Shown: in pieces, positions 1,977 through 37,170 of the stretch | How positions within the stretch are numbered: position 1 is the stretch's first letter | Layout: the number at the start of each line of letters is the position of its first letter | Source: Escherichia phage REP2 | Sequence record: OQ174501.1 | Reading direction: 5' to 3' (one strand) | DNA length: 64,000 nucleotides | Notes under the pieces: generated by a model | Seen by the model: the letters and a program-made list of their open reading frames with translations, nothing else | What the model was told of the DNA's origin: nothing | The model's database searches: none | Program-made: the position numbers and the translations under genes

Positions 1977-2582
1977 ATGAAAATGCAAAGTGATTTCAAT
2001 TCAATGTTTGAAGAGTTCCAAAGACAGGTTGATGTTCCAGACCAATTATTAAATGCTCTTAAACGTATGGCAGAAGGACGTAATTACTATTGGGGTTCTT
2101 CATATGAAACTGATGAAAGTCTTTCTGGATTTTATAAAGGTAAAAAGTCTTTAATACGTCCTGGAATACTTATTAACAGTATTGAATCAATTCATTCATT
2201 AACATGTGATTTTGATGTTGAATTTACTGATTTCATTTCTCCTGAATGGACAGTATGTTATTTAAACGACGATTATGATTATCTTGGCGTTTATAGTTTA
2301 AGTGATGCATGGTTTAAACGTAATTTACAAAAGTCAAATTTATTTTATATTGATACTACGGTAAAATTTCAGGGAAAGAAATATTTCTTTACTCTTATAG
2401 TTGATTCTGAAACAAAGCATGAAAATAAACGTATTCTTAGTAAAAAGAATATCTTAACTATTGTTGATGATCTTTTTGATAAATTCGTAGAAAATCCTAA
2501 TTTTGAAAGCGATTTATTATTAGAAAAATTTGTTAAGGAATGTAGAGAATATGTCAAAGCCATCACTATACCTTCCAAGTAA
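1977..2582 (+). CDS. Hypothetical protein
   Basis: 201 aa; C-terminus FVKECREY shares the junction motif seen in the next three genes. Confidence 0.55.
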   Translation: MKMQSDFNSMFEEFQRQVDVPDQLLNALKRMAEGRNYYWGSSYETDESLSGFYKGKKSLIRPGILINSIESIHSLTCDFDVEFTDFISPEWTVCYLNDDYDYLGVYSLSDAWFKRNLQKSNLFYIDTTVKFQGKKYFFTLIVDSETKHENKRILSKKNILTIVDDLFDKFVENPNFESDLLLEKFVKECREYVKAITIPSK

Positions 2583-2943
2583 ACCGTTGAAGTATGAATT
2601 AAAGCGTCAGATAATTTCTACTGATGTGTTAATAGGTCCTGTGGTAGCCGTATCATTTGTGATTCTGCTGATTGCTGGAATAGTTATAGACGTTATGACT
2701 GATATTGAATCTGGTGCAATATTTGGAGCAACACTAATTCTTCCATTGGTAGTTCCGCTTTTATTAGTACCTATAAATTGGATAGGATATTGGTATCAAG
2801 GAAGACACTATCGTAAACGTGTACGTGAATGGAAAGCTCAGTGTAAAAAGATTAAAAAGGAACACCAGCTTAAACTTGCTGCGCATGAATTTAATGAAAT
2901 TATGAAATTTGTTAAGGAATCACGATGCAAAAGCCAAAACTAA
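2551..2943 (+). CDS. Small membrane protein (2 TM), paralogue family
   Basis: Hydrophobic segments VVAVSFVILLIAGIVI and LILPLVVPLLLVPI; charged C-terminal tail ending KESRCK. Confidence 0.55.
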   Translation: MSKPSLYLPSKPLKYELKRQIISTDVLIGPVVAVSFVILLIAGIVIDVMTDIESGAIFGATLILPLVVPLLLVPINWIGYWYQGRHYRKRVREWKAQCKKIKKEHQLKLAAHEFNEIMKFVKESRCKSQN

Positions 2944-3287
2944 ATAAAGTCAAATATTCTCTTCCTGAGTCATTTTTAATTTTTGCTGTAGCGTTGGCTA
3001 CAGCTCTTGCGGGTAGTCTTTTTGGATTGTTAATTGACTGTCTTATTTTAAACATTGACGGCACAGTAAATATAATAGAAGTTTGGAGTGAACTTCGTTA
3101 TACTATAGCGATTTCATTATTTTCATTCTTTGGTACCATGTTATATTTTCATTATGATAATTTTAAAATAAATTGGCAAAGAAAAAAGGATTACAAAATA
3201 CAATTAAATGAATATAATAACTACATGTCTTATATTGAAAAAGAATCAATGGAAGAGTTTGTGAGTGATTGTAGGAAAATTAAATGA
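2925..3287 (+). CDS. Small membrane protein (2 TM), paralogue family
   Basis: 120 aa; TM segments; C-terminal SDCRKIK. Confidence 0.55.
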   Translation: MQKPKLNKVKYSLPESFLIFAVALATALAGSLFGLLIDCLILNIDGTVNIIEVWSELRYTIAISLFSFFGTMLYFHYDNFKINWQRKKDYKIQLNEYNNYMSYIEKESMEEFVSDCRKIK

Positions 3288-3772
3288 TTTTAAAAACTCG
3301 CTGGTATGATTTAGATGATGGGGACGATGGCATTTCAGTTGATAGAGTTGACTGGAGTGGCTGTTCCGAAGATATGAAAAAATTGTTAATTAGGGAGTTT
3401 AGAATGGGATATCAAGCAGCTAAGCCATCTACTGTAACAGATGATAAATTCGTGTGTATTCAAAATGGTCGTGCTAAGTTAACGAACGCTGATTGGTTCA
3501 CAGATAAGAAGGTTATTCTGTGGTATATTATTAGTTTTCCTGTGACATCATTTGTATTTTGCTTCTTTGGAGAAAGTCCAGTAGGCAGAACGGAAGATTG
3601 GATTCTTTTAATTATACTTGTTAATATTTTTACAGCAGCAGTACTATCAGGAATATGGTGCGTGTTCATTGAAATGCCATGGCGGTTACGTAGGCAGCAA
3701 AAGATTTTTGATGAAAAGAAATATACTCAAAATTTAAATAATTTTATCACTGAATGCAGGAAATTAAAATGA
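3284..3772 (+). CDS. Small membrane protein, paralogue family
   Basis: 162 aa; TM segments; C-terminal TECRKLK; its stop overlaps the nudE start (ATGA). Confidence 0.55.
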   Translation: MILKTRWYDLDDGDDGISVDRVDWSGCSEDMKKLLIREFRMGYQAAKPSTVTDDKFVCIQNGRAKLTNADWFTDKKVILWYIISFPVTSFVFCFFGESPVGRTEDWILLIILVNIFTAAVLSGIWCVFIEMPWRLRRQQKIFDEKKYTQNLNNFITECRKLK

Positions 3773-5698: not shown

Positions 5699-5837
5699 TA
5701 TGGGAACAACCTGGACCTCATGATTCTATGAGGGATTCCCGCCAACCTGTAATAAGGTCGAGCCTGAGTGCGGTAATGGGTAAATACAGAAATGGACAAT
5801 TCATGCGCCACGGAATGGCCCAAATTTAGAGAGAATA

Positions 5838-6379
5838 AAATGAGAACATTTTTAACTGGTCCTTATCTATCCCTGATGAATGCTTTTACACACCATTCTG
5901 ACGCTAGAGTAGAAGAAATTTGTAAAAACGAATATATCCCGCCATTTGAAGAATTACTTAAACAGTACTGCACACTTCGACTAGATGGTGGACGTCAATC
6001 TGGTAAATCAACTGCAGTAACTAATTTTGCCGCTAATTGGTTGTATGACGGTGGAACAGTTATTGTTCTTTCTAATACTTCAGCTTACGCTAAAATTTCT
6101 GCAAATAACATTAAAAAGGAATTTTCGCGTTATTCTAATGATGATATACGTTTTCGTTTATTTACTGATTCTGTACGCAGTTTTATTGGTAATAAAGGAA
6201 GTAAGTTCAGAGGTTTATCGCTTTCGCGAATTTTGTATATAATTGACGAGCCTGTCAAATCTCCTGATATGGATAAGATTTATAGTGTCCATATTGACAC
6301 TGTACACTGCTGCTGTAATATTAAATGTTGTATTGGTGGTATTACTCGTCCACAGTTTTTCGTAATCGGAATGCAATGA
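5838..6379 (+). CDS. P-loop (Walker A) protein
   Basis: GGRQSGKST Walker A motif; start placed at the ATG after ggagagaataaa (ORF track starts at 5792); Cys-rich C-terminus. Confidence 0.5.
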
Positions 6380-31085: not shown

Positions 31086-31328
31086 AAGATGAACACCCAG
31101 ACTTCTGAAATAGATTATAATAAAATTCGTTCCTCTAAAGAGGAAATGATGAGACTCTTTAAAGCGTCTCATGATAAAGCTAAAGCAGAAGGAACTATAA
31201 AATATAAGCGCATAAAATTTAAAAGTTCTAATGAGCCTCTGTATGGCGTATTATGTGGATAGGAGCTTCGGCTCCTATATTGCTTTATAAATTTTTGGTA
31301 AAATAAACCAAAACAAAGAGGATATTAA

Positions 31329-32531
31329 ATGAAAGTATGTATTTTTATGGCTCGAGGTCTTGAAGGTTGTGGTGTAACTAAATTTTCTCTTGAGCAACGT
31401 GATTGGTTTATTAAGAATGGTCATGAAGTAACTTTGGTTTATGCTAAAGATAAATCATTTACTCGTAATTGCGCGCATGATTATAAATCATTTTCAATTC
31501 CGGTTTTATTGGCAAAAGAATATGATAAAACACTTAAGCTGGTAAATGATTGTGATATTCTAATTATCAATTCAGTTCCTGCTACTTCGGTTGAAGAAGA
31601 CACTATTAATAACTATAAAAAAATTATTGATAACATTAAACCTTCTGTTCGTGTTGTAGTTTATCAACATGACCATTCTTCTCTTTCTTTGCGCCGAAAT
31701 TTGGGATTAGAAGAAACTGTTCGTCGAGCTGATGTTATTTTTAGCCATTCTGATAATGGTGATTTTAATAAAGTTCTGATGAAAGAATGGTATCCAGAAA
31801 CAGTTTCTCTGTTTGATGATATTGAAGAAGCACCGACCGTATATAACTTTCAGCCTCCGATGGATATTGCGAAGGTTCGATCAACCTACTGGAAAGATGT
31901 TTCTGAAATTAACATGAATATCAACCGTTGGATTGGTCGTACGACTACATGGAAAGGTTTTTATCAGATGTTTGATTTCCATGAAAAACATCTTAAACCT
32001 GCAGGACTAAGTACTATTATGGAAGGTCTGGAACGTTCTCCAGCGTTCATTCCTATTAAAGAAAAAGGAATTCCATACGAGTATTATCGTCTTCATCAAG
32101 TAGACCAAATTAAAATTGCTCCTAATTTGCCAACGCAAATTCTTGACCGTTATGTAAATAGCGAAATGCTTGAACGCATGAGTAAATCCGGATTTGGTTA
32201 TCAGCTGAGTAAGTTGGACAAAAAATATCTACAACGTTCTTTAGAATATACTCATCTCGAGCTTGGTGCATGTGGAACAATTCCGGTATTTTGGAAATCT
32301 ACTGGCGAAAATTTAAAATTCCGTGTTGATAATACTCCTTTGACCTCGCATGATAGCGGTATCATTTGGTTTGATGAAAATGACATGGAATCAACATTTG
32401 AGCGTATTAAAGAACTGTCATCTGACCGAACTCTTTATGACCGTGAACGCGAAAAAGCTTATGAATTTTTGTATCAGCATCAAGATTCAAGCTTCTGCTT
32501 TAAAGAACAGTTTGACATTATTACAAAATAA
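31329..32531 (+). CDS. agt: DNA alpha-glucosyltransferase
   Basis: 400 aa; ICIFMARGLEGCGVTKFSLEQRDWFIKNGHEVTLVYAKDKSF matches T4 alpha-gt as I recall it. Confidence 0.9.
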   Translation: MKVCIFMARGLEGCGVTKFSLEQRDWFIKNGHEVTLVYAKDKSFTRNCAHDYKSFSIPVLLAKEYDKTLKLVNDCDILIINSVPATSVEEDTINNYKKIIDNIKPSVRVVVYQHDHSSLSLRRNLGLEETVRRADVIFSHSDNGDFNKVLMKEWYPETVSLFDDIEEAPTVYNFQPPMDIAKVRSTYWKDVSEINMNINRWIGRTTTWKGFYQMFDFHEKHLKPAGLSTIMEGLERSPAFIPIKEKGIPYEYYRLHQVDQIKIAPNLPTQILDRYVNSEMLERMSKSGFGYQLSKLDKKYLQRSLEYTHLELGACGTIPVFWKSTGENLKFRVDNTPLTSHDSGIIWFDENDMESTFERIKELSSDRTLYDREREKAYEFLYQHQDSSFCFKEQFDIITK

Positions 32532-32547
32532 AGGGCTTCGGCCCTTT
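32532..32547 (+). terminator. UUCG-tetraloop hairpin (weak terminator / RNA stability element)
   Basis: gggc-ttcg-gccc + ttt. Confidence 0.45.
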
Positions 32548-32570
32548 AGCTTTATACGGAGTTTGATATA

Positions 32571-32711
32571 ATGATATTTCTTGGATATGTGATACTTTTT
32601 CTCGCATTTTATCTATTCGCTAGAGCATGTTGGATTGGGTTCTTTAGCACTCCAGATGGATTTATTTCAATAATTTTATTTTGCATTTCAATGACGGTTC
32701 TTGATATATGA
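32571..32711 (+). CDS. Small hydrophobic peptide (46 aa)
   Basis: MIFLGYVILFLAFYLF...; ATGA overlap with the downstream endonuclease gene. Confidence 0.35.
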   Translation: MIFLGYVILFLAFYLFARACWIGFFSTPDGFISIILFCISMTVLDI

Positions 32712-33331
32712 AAAAATATATAACTTATTTAACAATATATAGTGGAGATAAACTTCCTCCTTTTTATATTGGATCTACGTCTTTAGATAGGCATTTAGCT
32801 GGATATCATGGTTCAGTTTTATCTAAAAAGTATAAGAAAATTTATAATAAAGAGCTTTCAGATAATCCTCACTTATTTGATTCATGTATTTTAGCTGAAT
32901 TTGATACGCGTGAAGAAGCTATTAAATGCGAGTTATATTATCAACGATTGCATGATGCAGTTAAAAATCCATTATTCTTTAATATGTCATATGCTGCTCC
33001 AAAAGGTTCATTTGGAAGAGATAATAAAGGACAAAATCATCCATTATATGGTTCTCATAATTGTAAAGGAAATATACATTCACATGATCCATTAACAGGA
33101 AAATCTGCCTTTTTGCCTTATATTCCAGAAGGTTATGTAAAAGGAAGGTCAAATAAATTTAAAGCTTCATCACATAATAAAGGTAAAAAATGGTATAATA
33201 ACGGAGTTAAGCAAATGTTATGTCATGAACCTCCTGGTCCTGAATGGACAAAAGGAAAAATTAAAGAACTGGTTTCAAAAGCAGCTAAATTAGGATGGAA
33301 AAGACACCATGAAAATACTAAACTTGGGTGA
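32708..33331 (+). CDS. GIY-YIG (Seg-like) homing endonuclease
   Basis: N-terminal YITYLTIY...FYIGSTS GIY-YIG-like motifs; NUMOD3-like GQNHPLYGSHN; lies between alpha-gt and 47, the T4 mobB position. Confidence 0.6.
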   Translation: MKKYITYLTIYSGDKLPPFYIGSTSLDRHLAGYHGSVLSKKYKKIYNKELSDNPHLFDSCILAEFDTREEAIKCELYYQRLHDAVKNPLFFNMSYAAPKGSFGRDNKGQNHPLYGSHNCKGNIHSHDPLTGKSAFLPYIPEGYVKGRSNKFKASSHNKGKKWYNNGVKQMLCHEPPGPEWTKGKIKELVSKAAKLGWKRHHENTKLG

Positions 33332-34328
33332 TTGGCATTTAGGCGTTAAAGCTGATGATGAGTGGATTCGCGGTATTCAAATTGATGGAATTAAGCAAGC
33401 GATAGAATATTCTAAGAAAAATGGAATTACTGTATGGATTCAATATGGTGATATTTTTGATGTGCGAAAAGCAATCACACATAAAACTATGGAGTTTGCC
33501 CGTGAAATAGTTCAAATGCTTGATGACGCTGGAATCACATTACATACTATTGTAGGAAATCACGATCTCCACTACAAAAATGTAATGCATCCAAATGCCT
33601 CTACTGAGCTTTTGGCTAAATATCCTAATGTTAAAGTATATGATAAGCCTACTACAGTAGATTTTGACGGATGTTTAATTGATTTAATTCCTTGGATGTG
33701 TGAAGAAAATACTGGTGAAATTCTTGAACACATCAAAACTTCATCTGCTTCTTTTTGTGTTGGTCACTGGGAGCTGAATGGATTTTATTTTTATAAAGGA
33801 ATGAAATCTCATGGTCTTGAACCTGATTTCCTTAAGACTTATAAAGAGGTGTGGTCTGGTCACTTCCATACTATCTCTGAGGCTGCTAACGTCAGATATA
33901 TTGGGACACCATGGACACTAACTGCAGGTGACGAGAATGACCCTCGTGGGTTCTGGATGTTTGATACAGAAACAGAACGAATGGAATTTATTCCAAACAA
34001 TACTACCTGGCATCGTAGAATTCATTATCCATTTAAAGGAAAAATTGACTATAAAGATTTTACAAATTTATCAGTACGTGTTATAGTAACTGAAGTAGAC
34101 AAAAATCTGACGAAGTTCGAATCTGAACTAGAAAAAGTTGTGCATTCATTACGAGTTGTGTCAAAGATTGATAACTCTGTCGAGTCAGATGATAGTGAAG
34201 AAGTTGAAGTTCAATCTCTTCAGACGTTGATGGAAGAATACATTAATGCAATTCCAGACATCACTGATTCTGACCGCGAAGCACTTATTCAATATGCAAA
34301 TCAGTTATATGTAGAGGCAACACAATGA
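33309..34328 (+). CDS. 47: Recombination endonuclease subunit gp47 (Mre11-like)
   Basis: 339 aa; phosphoesterase motifs LGDWH, GDIFD, GNHD. Confidence 0.9.
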   Translation: MKILNLGDWHLGVKADDEWIRGIQIDGIKQAIEYSKKNGITVWIQYGDIFDVRKAITHKTMEFAREIVQMLDDAGITLHTIVGNHDLHYKNVMHPNASTELLAKYPNVKVYDKPTTVDFDGCLIDLIPWMCEENTGEILEHIKTSSASFCVGHWELNGFYFYKGMKSHGLEPDFLKTYKEVWSGHFHTISEAANVRYIGTPWTLTAGDENDPRGFWMFDTETERMEFIPNNTTWHRRIHYPFKGKIDYKDFTNLSVRVIVTEVDKNLTKFESELEKVVHSLRVVSKIDNSVESDDSEEVEVQSLQTLMEEYINAIPDITDSDREALIQYANQLYVEATQ

Positions 34329-34775: not shown

Positions 34776-36460
34776 AGAATTTTAAACTAAACCGAGTTAG
34801 GTATCAAAATATAATGTCAGTAGGTGGAAATCCTATTGACATTCAATTAGATAAGGTTCAAAAAACTCTTATTACTGGACGAAATGGCGGTGGTAAGTCT
34901 ACTATGTTAGAAGCCATCACATTTGGGCTTTTTGGCAAGCCATTTCGTGATGTAAAGAAAGGTCAATTAATAAACAGCACAAATAAGAAAGAACTTTTAG
35001 TTGAACTGTGGATGGAATATGATGAGAAAAAGTACTATATCAAAAGAGGACAAAAACCAAACGTTTTCGAAATCACCGTTAACGGTACACGTCTTAATGA
35101 ATCTGCCAGCAGTAAAGATTTCCAAGCAGAATTTGAACAGCTTATCGGAATGTCATATGCCAGTTTCAAGCAGATTGTTGTCCTTGGTACAGCAGGGTAT
35201 ACCCCTTTCATGGGTTTGTCGACCCCTGCGCGAAGAAAGCTTGTGGAAGACCTGCTTGAGGTAGGAACATTAGCTGAAATGGATAAGCTTAATAAAGCAC
35301 TAATACGTGAATTAAATTCGCAGAACCAAGTGCTTGATGTTAAAAAAGATAGTATTATCCAACAAATTAAAATATATAATGATAACGTTGAACGCCAGAA
35401 AAAATTAACGGGTGACAACCTTACACGTCTACAAAATATGTATGATGATTTGGCAAAAGAAGCTAGAACGCTAAAATCGGAAATAGAAGAAGCTAACGAA
35501 AGATTAGTTAATATTGTTTTGGATGAAGACCCGACTGATGCATTTAATAAAATCGGTCAAGAAGCAGTTTTAATTAAATCAAAAATTGACTCGTATAATA
35601 AAGTCATTAATATGTATCACGAAGGTGGATTATGTCCAACCTGTTTGTCACAATTAAGTTCCGGTGATAAAGTTGTTTCTAAAATTAAAGATAAAGTTTC
35701 TGAATGTACGCATTCGTTTGAACAGCTTTCAACACACCGTGATAATTTAAAAGTTCTTGTTGATGAATACCGAGATAATATTAAAACTCAGCAGTCGTTG
35801 GCAAATGATATTCGCAATAAAAAGCAATCTCTAATCACGACGGTAGATAAAGCTAAAAAAGTTAAAGCAGCTATAGAAAAAGCATCTTCTGAGTTTATTG
35901 ACCATGCTGATGAAATAGCACTGCTTCAAGAAGAACTTGATAAAATTGTTAAGACAAAAACTAATTTAGTAATGGAAAAATACCACCGAGGAATTTTGAC
36001 TGATATGCTCAAAGATTCTGGTATTAAAGGTGCTATTATTAAAAAGTACATTCCATTATTTAATAAGCAGATTAACCATTATCTTAAAATAATGGAAGCG
36101 GATTATGTGTTTACATTAGATGAAGAATTTAATGAGACAATTAAATCCCGTGGTCGTGAAGATTTTAGTTATGCTTCATTCAGTCAAGGTGAAAAAGCAC
36201 GAATTGATATTGCTCTTTTATTTACTTGGCGTGATATTGCTGAAAAAGTTTCAGGTGTTAAAATAAGTTGTTTATTTCTTGATGAAGTGTATGACGGTGC
36301 ATTTGATGCTGAAGGCATTAAAAATGTAGCTAAAATTTTAGATGGTTTGAAGGATACCAACTTCTTCATAATTTCGCATAAAGACCATGATCCGCAGGAT
36401 TATGGACAGCATATTAAAATGGAAAAAGTTGGTAGATTTAGTGTTGCCACTATTAATTAA
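34772..36460 (+). CDS. 46: Recombination endonuclease subunit gp46 (Rad50/SbcC-like ATPase)
   Basis: 562 aa; Walker A GRNGGGKST, long coiled coil with CPTC zinc hook, C-terminal signature/Walker B LFLDEV; GTG start. Confidence 0.9.
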   Translation: MKNFKLNRVRYQNIMSVGGNPIDIQLDKVQKTLITGRNGGGKSTMLEAITFGLFGKPFRDVKKGQLINSTNKKELLVELWMEYDEKKYYIKRGQKPNVFEITVNGTRLNESASSKDFQAEFEQLIGMSYASFKQIVVLGTAGYTPFMGLSTPARRKLVEDLLEVGTLAEMDKLNKALIRELNSQNQVLDVKKDSIIQQIKIYNDNVERQKKLTGDNLTRLQNMYDDLAKEARTLKSEIEEANERLVNIVLDEDPTDAFNKIGQEAVLIKSKIDSYNKVINMYHEGGLCPTCLSQLSSGDKVVSKIKDKVSECTHSFEQLSTHRDNLKVLVDEYRDNIKTQQSLANDIRNKKQSLITTVDKAKKVKAAIEKASSEFIDHADEIALLQEELDKIVKTKTNLVMEKYHRGILTDMLKDSGIKGAIIKKYIPLFNKQINHYLKIMEADYVFTLDEEFNETIKSRGREDFSYASFSQGEKARIDIALLFTWRDIAEKVSGVKISCLFLDEVYDGAFDAEGIKNVAKILDGLKDTNFFIISHKDHDPQDYGQHIKMEKVGRFSVATIN

Positions 36461-37170
36461 TGTTTGTGCTTACAGTTATCATTATGCCACCTTGATAAAT
36501 TTCCGAAAGTGGTAACTTTACCGCAATGGACGCAAGTACCAGTCTTTTCAGTTTTCTTGCGTCCATTTGGATTTTTCTTGCAGAAATTTCTATGCGCTGC
36601 GATAACGCATTTCTTGCCTATCATTCCGCAGAATTCGCAGGATGTTTCTTCAAGAACGATTGCTTTAAGCCCGTTTGAGATATTATTTCTGTGTTCTTTA
36701 GACATTGGTGGTCTAACTTTAGGATTAGGGTGATTTGGGCAGTTATCAAAATGCCAACGATTCATATTCCCGCTTAATCCAGACTTACCGCAATGAGGAC
36801 AAGTTAGTCTTGCTTTATTAGCTACTGCATCAGACATTTTCTTTCGTGTCTCTTGGGAGAATTCTTTGTTCTTTTCTATTTCCCAGAGTTTACGACGAAT
36901 CCAACCGAAAGTTTTATTGTTGCGTTTAGCGTATTTCGTAGAAACTGTCATCATGTTAGCAGCATAGACTAATTTTGGTTCAGAAGGATAAATTTTTACT
37001 AAAAGTTGATGAGCTACATAGTGCTCTTCTGGTGTTAAATCTACTAAGTTTGAAGCATCATCACTTCCATTTAAACAGCGCGGTATAATGTGATGAGATT
37101 CAGTATAACAATCAAGTTTTCGAGATTTAGCATTAGAGATTAACTTTTCATAAATTAGTTTATAATTCAT
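36457..37170 (-). CDS. HNH homing endonuclease with C-terminal zinc-finger repeats
   Basis: HNH motif ESHHIIPRCLNGSDDASNLVDLTPEEH; three CxxC...H...C repeats; own SD aagga; convergent with gene 46, 4-nt overlap. Confidence 0.8.
   Translation of the reverse strand: MNYKLIYEKLISNAKSRKLDCYTESHHIIPRCLNGSDDASNLVDLTPEEHYVAHQLLVKIYPSEPKLVYAANMMTVSTKYAKRNNKTFGWIRRKLWEIEKNKEFSQETRKKMSDAVANKARLTCPHCGKSGLSGNMNRWHFDNCPNHPNPKVRPPMSKEHRNNISNGLKAIVLEETSCEFCGMIGKKCVIAAHRNFCKKNPNGRKKTEKTGTCVHCGKVTTFGNLSRWHNDNCKHKH

Follow-up and report, generated by a model that had tools for sequence, protein, structure and literature searches.

Genes between a-gt and gene 47

The 64,000-nucleotide (nt) stretch of Escherichia phage REP2 analysed here (OQ174501.1), called the window throughout, carries two open reading frames (ORFs) between a-gt, the gene for the DNA alpha-glucosyltransferase, and gene 47. 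A sequence-only reading had placed an ORF of 46 amino acids (aa) at 32571..32711 and one of 207 aa at 32708..33331, and both are indeed found there, on the plus strand, as are all features below of which the coordinates are joined by two dots. Sequence comparison identifies the shorter ORF as the ortholog of T4 gene 47.1; the longer one is a predicted free-standing homing endonuclease gene (HEG) of the GIY-YIG class, inserted between gene 47.1 and gene 47.

From gene 55 onwards, the window contains, in this order, homologs of a-gt.5, a-gt.4, a-gt.3, and a-gt.2, a-gt itself, a hairpin with a UUCG loop, the 46-aa ORF, the 207-aa ORF, gene 47, 46.2, 46.1, and 46. The conserved upstream flank is formed by a-gt (31329..32531; Pfam AGT, E 4e-237; annotated in Escherichia phage REP3) and the downstream flank by gene 47 (33309..34328), the presumed target gene, which specifies the Mre11/SbcD-like subunit of a recombination nuclease (Pfam Metallophos; 99 % identical to T4 gp47). 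The 207-aa ORF and gene 47 overlap by 23 nt. The 3.1-kb region around both ORFs is 100 % identical to that of REP3 (OQ174502), a T4-like phage of the genus Tequatrovirus, and shares 98-99 % identity with many further T4-like phages. In the RefSeq record of T4 the order is a-gt, gene 47.1, gene 47, with gene 47.1 as the sole occupant of the a-gt/47 gap. The sequence-only reading had given mobB as the T4 gene at this position, which is wrong: RefSeq puts mobB between a-gt.2 and a-gt, upstream of a-gt, and the same position is given by Edgell et al. (2010, Table 1; PMC2988022).

The 207-aa protein is a predicted GIY-YIG nuclease

The best PHROG match of the 207-aa protein is phrog_10820 (E 1e-94), which is named "HNH endonuclease", a label repeated in many GenBank records; some other GenBank records name the gene "putative homing endonuclease". 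Domain, homolog, and structure comparisons all point to the GIY-YIG class. Residues 4-84 match the Pfam GIY-YIG model (PF01541) with an E value of 3e-4 and 21.4 bits. A homolog search in a large database returned 170 homologs, of which the precomputed Pfam domains are NUMOD3, GIY-YIG, or I-HmuI NUMOD-like. When 39 diverse homologs were scanned with Pfam, 18 matched NUMOD3, 14 GIY-YIG (counted at E ≤ 0.01), 1 SegE_GIY-YIG, and none HNH. An AlphaFold2 model built on the homolog alignment has a mean predicted local distance difference test score (pLDDT) of 84.6, with values of 93-98 over residues 1-100, and shows a beta-beta-alpha-alpha-beta-alpha arrangement (strands 4-11 and 19-25, helices 26-30 and 43-52, strand 57-65, helix 68-81). 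The top Foldseek matches of this model in the PDB are to the catalytic domain of I-TevI (1mk0, 1ln0; probability 0.99, target TM-score 0.60), followed at a distance by a weak match to the GIY-YIG domain of UvrC (E 2.2, probability 0.14), and the named structural matches in BFVD at E ≤ 1e-3 are GIY-YIG, NUMOD, Seg-like, or group-I-intron endonucleases. The HNH label carried by RefSeq-style records and by phrog_10820 was rejected on the grounds that no homolog out of 39 matches an HNH model and that no HNH structure occurs among the PDB and BFVD matches. Direct comparison with the HNH-type MobB of T4 by hhalign, an insensitive procedure when run against single T4 sequences (SegF, MobB, I-TevII), gave a probability of 0.4 %. 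The earlier assignment to the GIY-YIG class, and not to HNH enzymes of the MobB type, is thus borne out by the near-threshold Pfam match, the structural match with I-TevI, and the lack of HNH domains among the 39 homologs.

The catalytic domain is assigned to aa 1-100 (32708..33007) from the model, the I-TevI match, and the invariant alignment columns, and comprises Y7, Y20-I21-G22, R28, Y33, E75, and N92 as its key residues. Invariant in the 39 homologs are Y7, T9, Y11, G13, P17, Y20, I21, G22, S23, Y33, G35, S39, L56, F57, A71, E75, and N92, and the family can be recognized by the signature Y-x-T-Y-x-G-x-K-L-P-x-F-Y-I-G-S...G-Y-x-G-S. A NUMOD3-like half motif, GQNHPLYG, at aa 108-115 precedes the C-terminal region (aa 116-207; 33053..33328), for which model and alignment indicate two beta-hairpins, an NKGKKWYNNG motif, and a terminal helix. 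By analogy with the architecture of I-TevI and the Seg proteins, this region is presumed to bind DNA. Pfam NUMOD3 (PF07460) has no match in the 207-aa protein at E ≤ 1, the 18 homologs that do match it being mostly those with other C-termini. No NCBIfam model matches either the endonuclease or the 47.1 protein. The ratio of nonsynonymous to synonymous substitution rates (dN/dS) over the whole endonuclease ORF is 0.05-0.26 (dN 0.010 and dS 0.159 within Tequatrovirus; ratios of 0.06-0.26 between genera), so that the ORF is under purifying selection. The 207-aa protein can be described as a predicted free-standing GIY-YIG nuclease, as judged from sequence and model, with putative cleavage activity and a putative target site.

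The nuclease domain has no paralog in the window. It does recur elsewhere, towards the left end of the genomes of other T4-like phages, in six hits (H71-H76; for example vB_EcoM_G2285 at 5791-6156 and Klebsiella phages at approximately 5 kb) that share the N-terminal nuclease domain only (residues 3-123/156, 53-66 % identity) and carry NUMOD3-rich C-termini. A shared N-terminal domain joined to differing C-termini at other loci points to domain shuffling, in which the catalytic module is re-used with other DNA-binding modules.

Gene 47.1

The protein encoded by the 46-aa ORF is identical to T4 gp47.1 at 45 of its 46 residues (97.8 %), with T18A as the single substitution, and matches phrog_6693 with an E value of 6e-31. 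In T4 the gene, annotated as a "hypothetical predicted membrane protein", likewise has 46 codons and lies at the same place after a-gt, behind the same upstream hairpin and GGAG sequence; the GGAG is located 9 nt upstream of the start of 47.1 in the window. The difference lies at the 3' end: the stop codon overlaps the start of gene 47 in T4 and that of the inserted endonuclease gene in the window. With a grand average of hydropathy (GRAVY) of 1.79, the micro-ORF ranks first among the 96 ORFs of 40-60 aa in the window, its hydrophobic stretches being formed by residues 1-17 and 29-46. The length of 46 aa is by itself not unusual for an ORF in DNA as AT-rich as that of the window; conservation is what marks it as a real gene (phrog_6693, orthologs in three phage clades, dN/dS 0.06-0.4). 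Orthologs of 46-47 aa, directly 5' of gene 47 and always with an ATGA overlap, occur in Tequatrovirus and in two further clades of which the gp47 is only ~71-73 % identical to that of the window. A core of 15 residues, RACW[IV]GFFSTPDGFIS, is invariant. Between clades dS is saturated and dN amounts to 0.14-0.35, giving the dN/dS of 0.06-0.4; the ORF is therefore protein-coding, under purifying selection, and no remnant. From these comparisons the micro-ORF is the ortholog of T4 gene 47.1, resident before the HEG arrived. A literature search retrieved no paper on gp47.1 or on the endonuclease gene.

The insertion at the start of gene 47

Alignment of the window with T4 reveals a clean insertion of 601 bp directly after ATGAAAA, in the ATGA stop/start overlap of genes 47.1 and 47. 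The T4 junction reads ...GATAT ATGAAAA TTTTAAATTTAGGTGATTGG, and that of the window ...GATAT ATGAAAA AATATATAAC...(endonuclease)...GACACC ATGAAAA TACTAAACTTGGGTGATTGG. The insertion is thus bounded by a 7-bp direct repeat, of which the left copy (32708..32714) is the start of the endonuclease gene and the right copy (33309..33315) the start of gene 47. Only 2 differences from T4 are present in the 230 bp upstream of the insertion, and in the ~85 bp downstream the sole differences are four silent changes. The overlap that the coordinates of the sequence-only reading entail is real, the stop codon of the micro-ORF overlapping the endonuclease start codon as ATGA. In T4 this coupling site belongs to gene 47; in the window it is occupied by the endonuclease start. 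The first 23 nt of gene 47, read out of frame, supply the final seven codons and the stop codon of the endonuclease (H-E-N-T-K-L-G-stop).

The four silent changes (33317..33326) are located in codons 3-6 of gene 47, which read ATA CTA AAC TTG in the window and ATT TTA AAT TTA in T4, the differences being at nt 9, 10, 15, and 18 of the gene. Compared with the window, each of the seven Tequatrovirus loci that lack the HEG and have T4-type codons is changed at these four positions, which are the only ones to differ in all seven; the next gene 47 difference is located at nt 45 or later. The six HEG-bearing Tequatrovirus loci examined are all identical over the 23-nt overlap. As IMG/VR contains no HEG-bearing Tequatrovirus, such loci were taken from GenBank phage records and Logan contigs.

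In a wider survey, 68 phage records have a copy of the endonuclease at ≥ 90 % identity, 68 have the endonuclease/gene 47 junction, and ~465 have an uninterrupted 47.1/47 junction, so that carriers make up 68 of ~530 records. The variant codons are present in every carrier sampled, and the T4 codons at positions 3-6 in almost all non-carriers. Approximately nine records, representing seven to eight phages (among them Ec_YwIITB1, vB_Eco_BCPEco_001, vB_Sen_BCPSen_003, and SHFML-26), have the variant codons without the endonuclease; loss of the sequence from one ATGAAAA copy to the other would yield precisely their junction. Phage RB14 is intermediate, with ATT CTA AAT TTA. The three states (an empty, sensitive allele, an occupied, resistant one, and an empty, resistant one) are as the homing endonuclease cycle predicts. 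The pattern suggests that the four changes are a candidate target-site immunity polymorphism; in a set of interrelated records, with four sites that are all synonymous, it is not proof.

Frameshifted endonuclease copies are present in KMB22 (L035, at the equivalent of window position 33256) and ESh16 (L037, at 33184), both by 1-nt changes in A-runs, and a further frameshifted or N-gapped copy is present in KNP1 (L036); two of these three records, including that of ESh16, are marked UNVERIFIED. These copies were not counted as evidence of decay, since 1-nt changes in A-runs and runs of N could be sequencing errors as well as signs of early decay.

Homologs at gene 47 in other lineages

In four other lineages gene 47 is directly preceded, with an overlap, by homologs of 60-76 % identity. 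The ATGAAAAT start of gene 47 is embedded in the codons for their C-terminal tails, (H/N)-E-N-.... The upstream context varies. In L025 and L028 the endonuclease gene follows an a-gt.2 homolog and gene 47.1 is absent, while the HEG-less relatives L022-L024 and L031 have 47.1; in L041 and L043 a hairpin and a TGCTT...TATAAT element precede it; in L044, of which the protein is identical to a homolog named in Klebsiella phage KP185, a-gt and an unrelated ORF lie upstream. Position 18 of gene 47 is G or C in all five HEG-bearing lineages and A in every HEG-less lineage sampled, save for the HEG-less alleles with variant codons. In the several T4-like genera in which it occurs, the family is by sequence comparison specific for one locus, that at the start of gene 47.

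Gene 47 itself is mosaic next to some of these homologs. The first ~300 nt of the gene in L025 are far more diverged from the HEG-less relatives than the remainder, and a foreign block makes up the first ~135 residues of L028 gp47, the rest being identical to L025. Both blocks are consistent with recombination tracts beside the endonuclease gene. The L028 endonuclease (2249-3004) has a different and longer C-terminus, which brings it to 251 aa; the adjoining region of gene 47 is located at 3001-3400.

Expression signals

The endonuclease start is not preceded by a Shine-Dalgarno sequence, and inspection of the sequence shows no obvious one for gene 47 either. Because the endonuclease gene lacks its own Shine-Dalgarno sequence and sits in the ATGA overlap, low-level reinitiation after 47.1 would be its most likely route of translation. 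The ribosome-binding site of I-TevI is sequestered. RNA folding at the starts of the endonuclease gene and gene 47 is no better than that of shuffled sequences (z = +0.12 and +0.61, respectively) and thus offers no evidence for a sequestered site at either.

A GC-rich hairpin with a UUCG loop (32529..32548) directly follows the a-gt stop codon; it is terminator-like or stabiliser-like and is annotated as a terminator in phage SA20RB. It is followed by a predicted T4 middle-promoter-like element, GCTT-N14-TATAAT (32549..32572), of which the -10 hexamer (32567-32572) overlaps the start codon of 47.1, a call that goes back solely to the annotations of phages SA20RB and Lutter by other groups and to the consensus. 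A generic sigma-70 scan gave no more sites than expected by chance. In clades that lack 47.1 (L010-L013, L041, L043) an element of the TGCTT...TATAAT type is located before gene 47 or before the endonuclease gene.

Interpretation of the locus

The reading preferred here, to which a probability of roughly 0.7 is given, is that the 207-aa ORF is a GIY-YIG homing endonuclease gene that was inserted as a 601-bp cassette at the ATGA overlap of 47.1 and 47. It draws together what was observed of fold class, junction, presence/absence polymorphism, association with the silent sites, the selection that acts on either ORF, and the confinement of the family to one locus. The cassette would have no promoter of its own and would be read on the a-gt/47.1/47 message, and termination-reinitiation after 47.1 would give low-level translation of the endonuclease. 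When a carrier and a relative without the HEG, for example T4, infect the same cell, the HEG-less allele would be cut by the enzyme within or close to the first ~20 bp of gene 47, and recombinational repair from the HEG-bearing genome would copy the HEG into it. The gene 47 of the carrier would be protected by its four silent changes in codons 3-6. A more far-reaching version, in which a free-standing GIY-YIG enzyme behaves like an intron-encoded one, with its site in the first ~20 bp of gene 47, expression only via 47.1 termination-reinitiation, and three natural allelic states, can be put forward only tentatively.

Several observations weigh against the preferred reading. At 21.4 bits the 207-aa protein falls just under the gathering cut-off of the Pfam GIY-YIG model (22.6 bits), a near miss, and sequence searches of the PDB with the profile of 39 homologs or with the N-terminal 118 aa retrieved only designed repeat proteins and ceruloplasmin (E > 0.004). 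The column of R28, the expected catalytic Arg, varies among K, R, N, and Q over the 39 homologs, from which it appears that either the active site is atypical or the column assignment is off. The phage records counted are phylogenetically non-independent and include RefSeq/GenBank duplicates. The four changes are all at wobble or Leu first positions and could be a scar of recombination or co-conversion, or could tune the translation of gene 47. Outside Tequatrovirus, the same silent positions differ between L025 and L022-L024 and L031 over a background of 85-110 differences per 1020 nt, which makes this a weakly independent comparison. Transcripts from the predicted middle promoter, should it be real, would have their 5' ends within 47.1 and lack its start codon; no full peptide would be made from those mRNAs, and coupling on them would be undercut. 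Lastly, a target that abuts the insertion would be unusual, given that the characterised free-standing endonucleases of T4 are reported to cut at distances of hundreds to thousands of bp from the genes that encode them (PMC2988022).

These far-off cuts are also what gives weight to a possible, though rather doubtful, alternative: a true homing endonuclease of which the cleavage site is located elsewhere in gene 47, 47.1, or a-gt, the four changes being the scar of a diverged donor or an adaptation of the gene 47 translation start. Blocks of mosaic sequence are indeed present nearby, at nt 58-75 and 225-281 of gene 47 in L007, L008, and L026 and in the a-gt of T4 from ~465 nt upstream of the junction; the foreign N-terminal ~135 aa of L028 gp47 lie beside a HEG; and the insertion replaced the 47.1 coupling context, by which the translation start region of gene 47 was changed. 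Against this stand the facts that the four changes are the sole positions at which all seven HEG-less loci with T4 codons differ from the window, and that they are located within 18 nt of the junction, the next difference being at least 27 nt further on. They are also still found where the HEG is missing and gene 47 has its original coupling context with 47.1, which argues against a purely translational adaptation. As an improbable alternative, the ORF would be a former homing endonuclease, by now domesticated or catalytically dead, that is kept because the start and initiation region of gene 47 are embedded in its 3' end, so that only a precise deletion is tolerated. The Pfam score under threshold, the non-conserved Arg column, the 23-nt overlap with the essential gene 47, for which there is no obvious Shine-Dalgarno sequence, and the frameshifted copies in the records of KMB22 and ESh16 are all in line with such a history, and embedded host expression signals are a known route to the retention of T4 endonuclease genes (PMC2988022). 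A dead enzyme is less easily reconciled with purifying selection along the entire ORF (dN/dS 0.05-0.26, within Tequatrovirus as well as between genera) and with the invariance of the two Tyr positions and of the Glu and Asn positions; a patchy distribution, with the gene in 68 of ~530 records, and the occurrence in several genera, always at gene 47, fit ongoing mobility, and both frameshifts may be sequencing errors in A-runs, with the ESh16 record UNVERIFIED.

The sequence-only reading had left it undecided whether the micro-ORF is a leader, a membrane peptide, or a remnant. That the micro-ORF is part of the endonuclease cassette, as a leader, a regulatory peptide, or a remnant, is suggested by the ATGA overlap with the endonuclease start and by the lack of a Shine-Dalgarno sequence there; this is nevertheless very improbable, as the ORF is coupled to gene 47 in ~465 HEG-less records and in three clades, its peptide is under purifying selection with an invariant core of 15 residues, and HEG homologs occur without 47.1 upstream at five loci (L025, L028, L041, L043, and L044). 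Both the leader and the remnant were therefore discarded in favour of the conserved gene 47.1.

For the preferred reading of an inserted homing endonuclease gene, the consequences are incremental for the field, and no long-standing question is opened by them. A widespread misannotation is corrected, the "HNH endonuclease" of RefSeq-style records and phrog_10820 being a predicted GIY-YIG protein, and the micro-ORF is identified as conserved gene 47.1 and not as a cassette leader. The family of which the 207-aa protein is a member is an uncharacterised one that, in several T4-like genera, appears to have specialised in the start of gene 47, and is an ordinary kind of phage mobile element. T4, without the gene, and carriers of the REP3 type constitute a tractable pair, as their flanks near the junction are almost identical and mosaic divergence is found further out, in a-gt and gene 47; the four silent sites are a concrete and mutable candidate target. 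If the near-junction target and the three allelic states are as proposed, the locus would be a compact natural system in which to follow the complete life cycle of a homing endonuclease at the gene of a phage Mre11-like repair nuclease.

Neighbouring features

In the window, which lacks mobB, the a-gt.2 homolog and a-gt are separated by only 66 nt (31262-31329). This spacer contains a promoter-like element and a hairpin with a UUCG loop (31259-31278); in T4 the 264-aa HNH gene mobB occupies the position. With mobB and the gene 47-proximal HEG, the a-gt neighbourhood thus differs from that of T4 by two endonuclease presence/absence polymorphisms. On the minus strand, directly after gene 46, an ORF of 237 aa (36457-37170) is annotated as a "homing endonuclease" in REP3. 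It has a weak Pfam HNH match (E 0.007, under threshold), and T4 has no gene there, 46 being followed by 45.2; it looks like a second endonuclease insertion, antisense, beside the 46/47 operon.

A mosaic boundary is present in a-gt (window ~31300-32240, in comparison with T4 and L004): the T4 protein (L003) is only 91 % identical to that of the window, and nucleotide differences between the two are dense from ~465 nt upstream of the 47.1/47 junction. As window-type a-gt is also found in HEG-less phages (L005-L008, L026), this boundary is unrelated to the presence of the endonuclease. One of the matching records, GenBank PV654520 ("Pseudomonas phage vB_PSGBLB0006", with Pseudomonas aeruginosa as the stated host), shares 98 % identity with this region of an E. 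coli Tequatrovirus; an error in the host label or in the sample is probable.

Comparison with known endonucleases

MobB of T4 is, like the 207-aa protein, a free-standing endonuclease of the a-gt neighbourhood. It differs from it in its HNH fold, in its site between a-gt.2 and a-gt, and in having no similarity to the 207-aa protein. The Seg proteins of T4 (SegA-SegG) are much closer in lifestyle: they too are free-standing, encoded by promoter-less ORFs in the same orientation as their neighbours and located between conserved genes, their GIY-YIG domain is N-terminal and precedes a C-terminal region that presumably binds DNA, and they are present or absent among close relatives and adjoin an essential gene of DNA metabolism. 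The label "Seg-like" of the sequence-only reading therefore fits the architecture of the 207-aa protein but does not extend to its sequence, which has no significant similarity to T4 Seg proteins, carries a signature of its own, and has a variable Arg column. A tblastn search (E ≤ 1e-5) matched only 173 phage records, so that the Seg genes common to ~500 Tequatroviruses went unmatched, and hhalign against SegF, the only Seg protein compared directly, gave a probability of 0.4 %. In the same insensitive type of comparison, I-TevII of T4 gave a marginal match (E 4e-4) that runs from the Glu helix to the NUMOD3 region only. The targets of the Seg proteins are located hundreds of bp away, whereas the candidate target of the window endonuclease abuts the insertion point.

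With respect to its catalytic domain, the closest structural match of the 207-aa protein is I-TevI, the endonuclease of the T4 td intron (1mk0, 1ln0). E75 and N90 of I-TevI fall at nearly the same positions as E75 and N92 of the 207-aa protein. Both proteins have a modular layout that resembles beads on a string, and a target near the insertion site, if that is where the 207-aa protein cuts, would be a further likeness to I-TevI. The window gene differs from that of I-TevI in not being intron-encoded, the sequence identity is 17-19 %, and no zinc finger or helix-turn-helix was detected in the 207-aa protein. The closest known systems are thus the Seg endonucleases of T4 in lifestyle and architecture, and I-TevI in catalytic fold and, possibly, in a target near the site of insertion.

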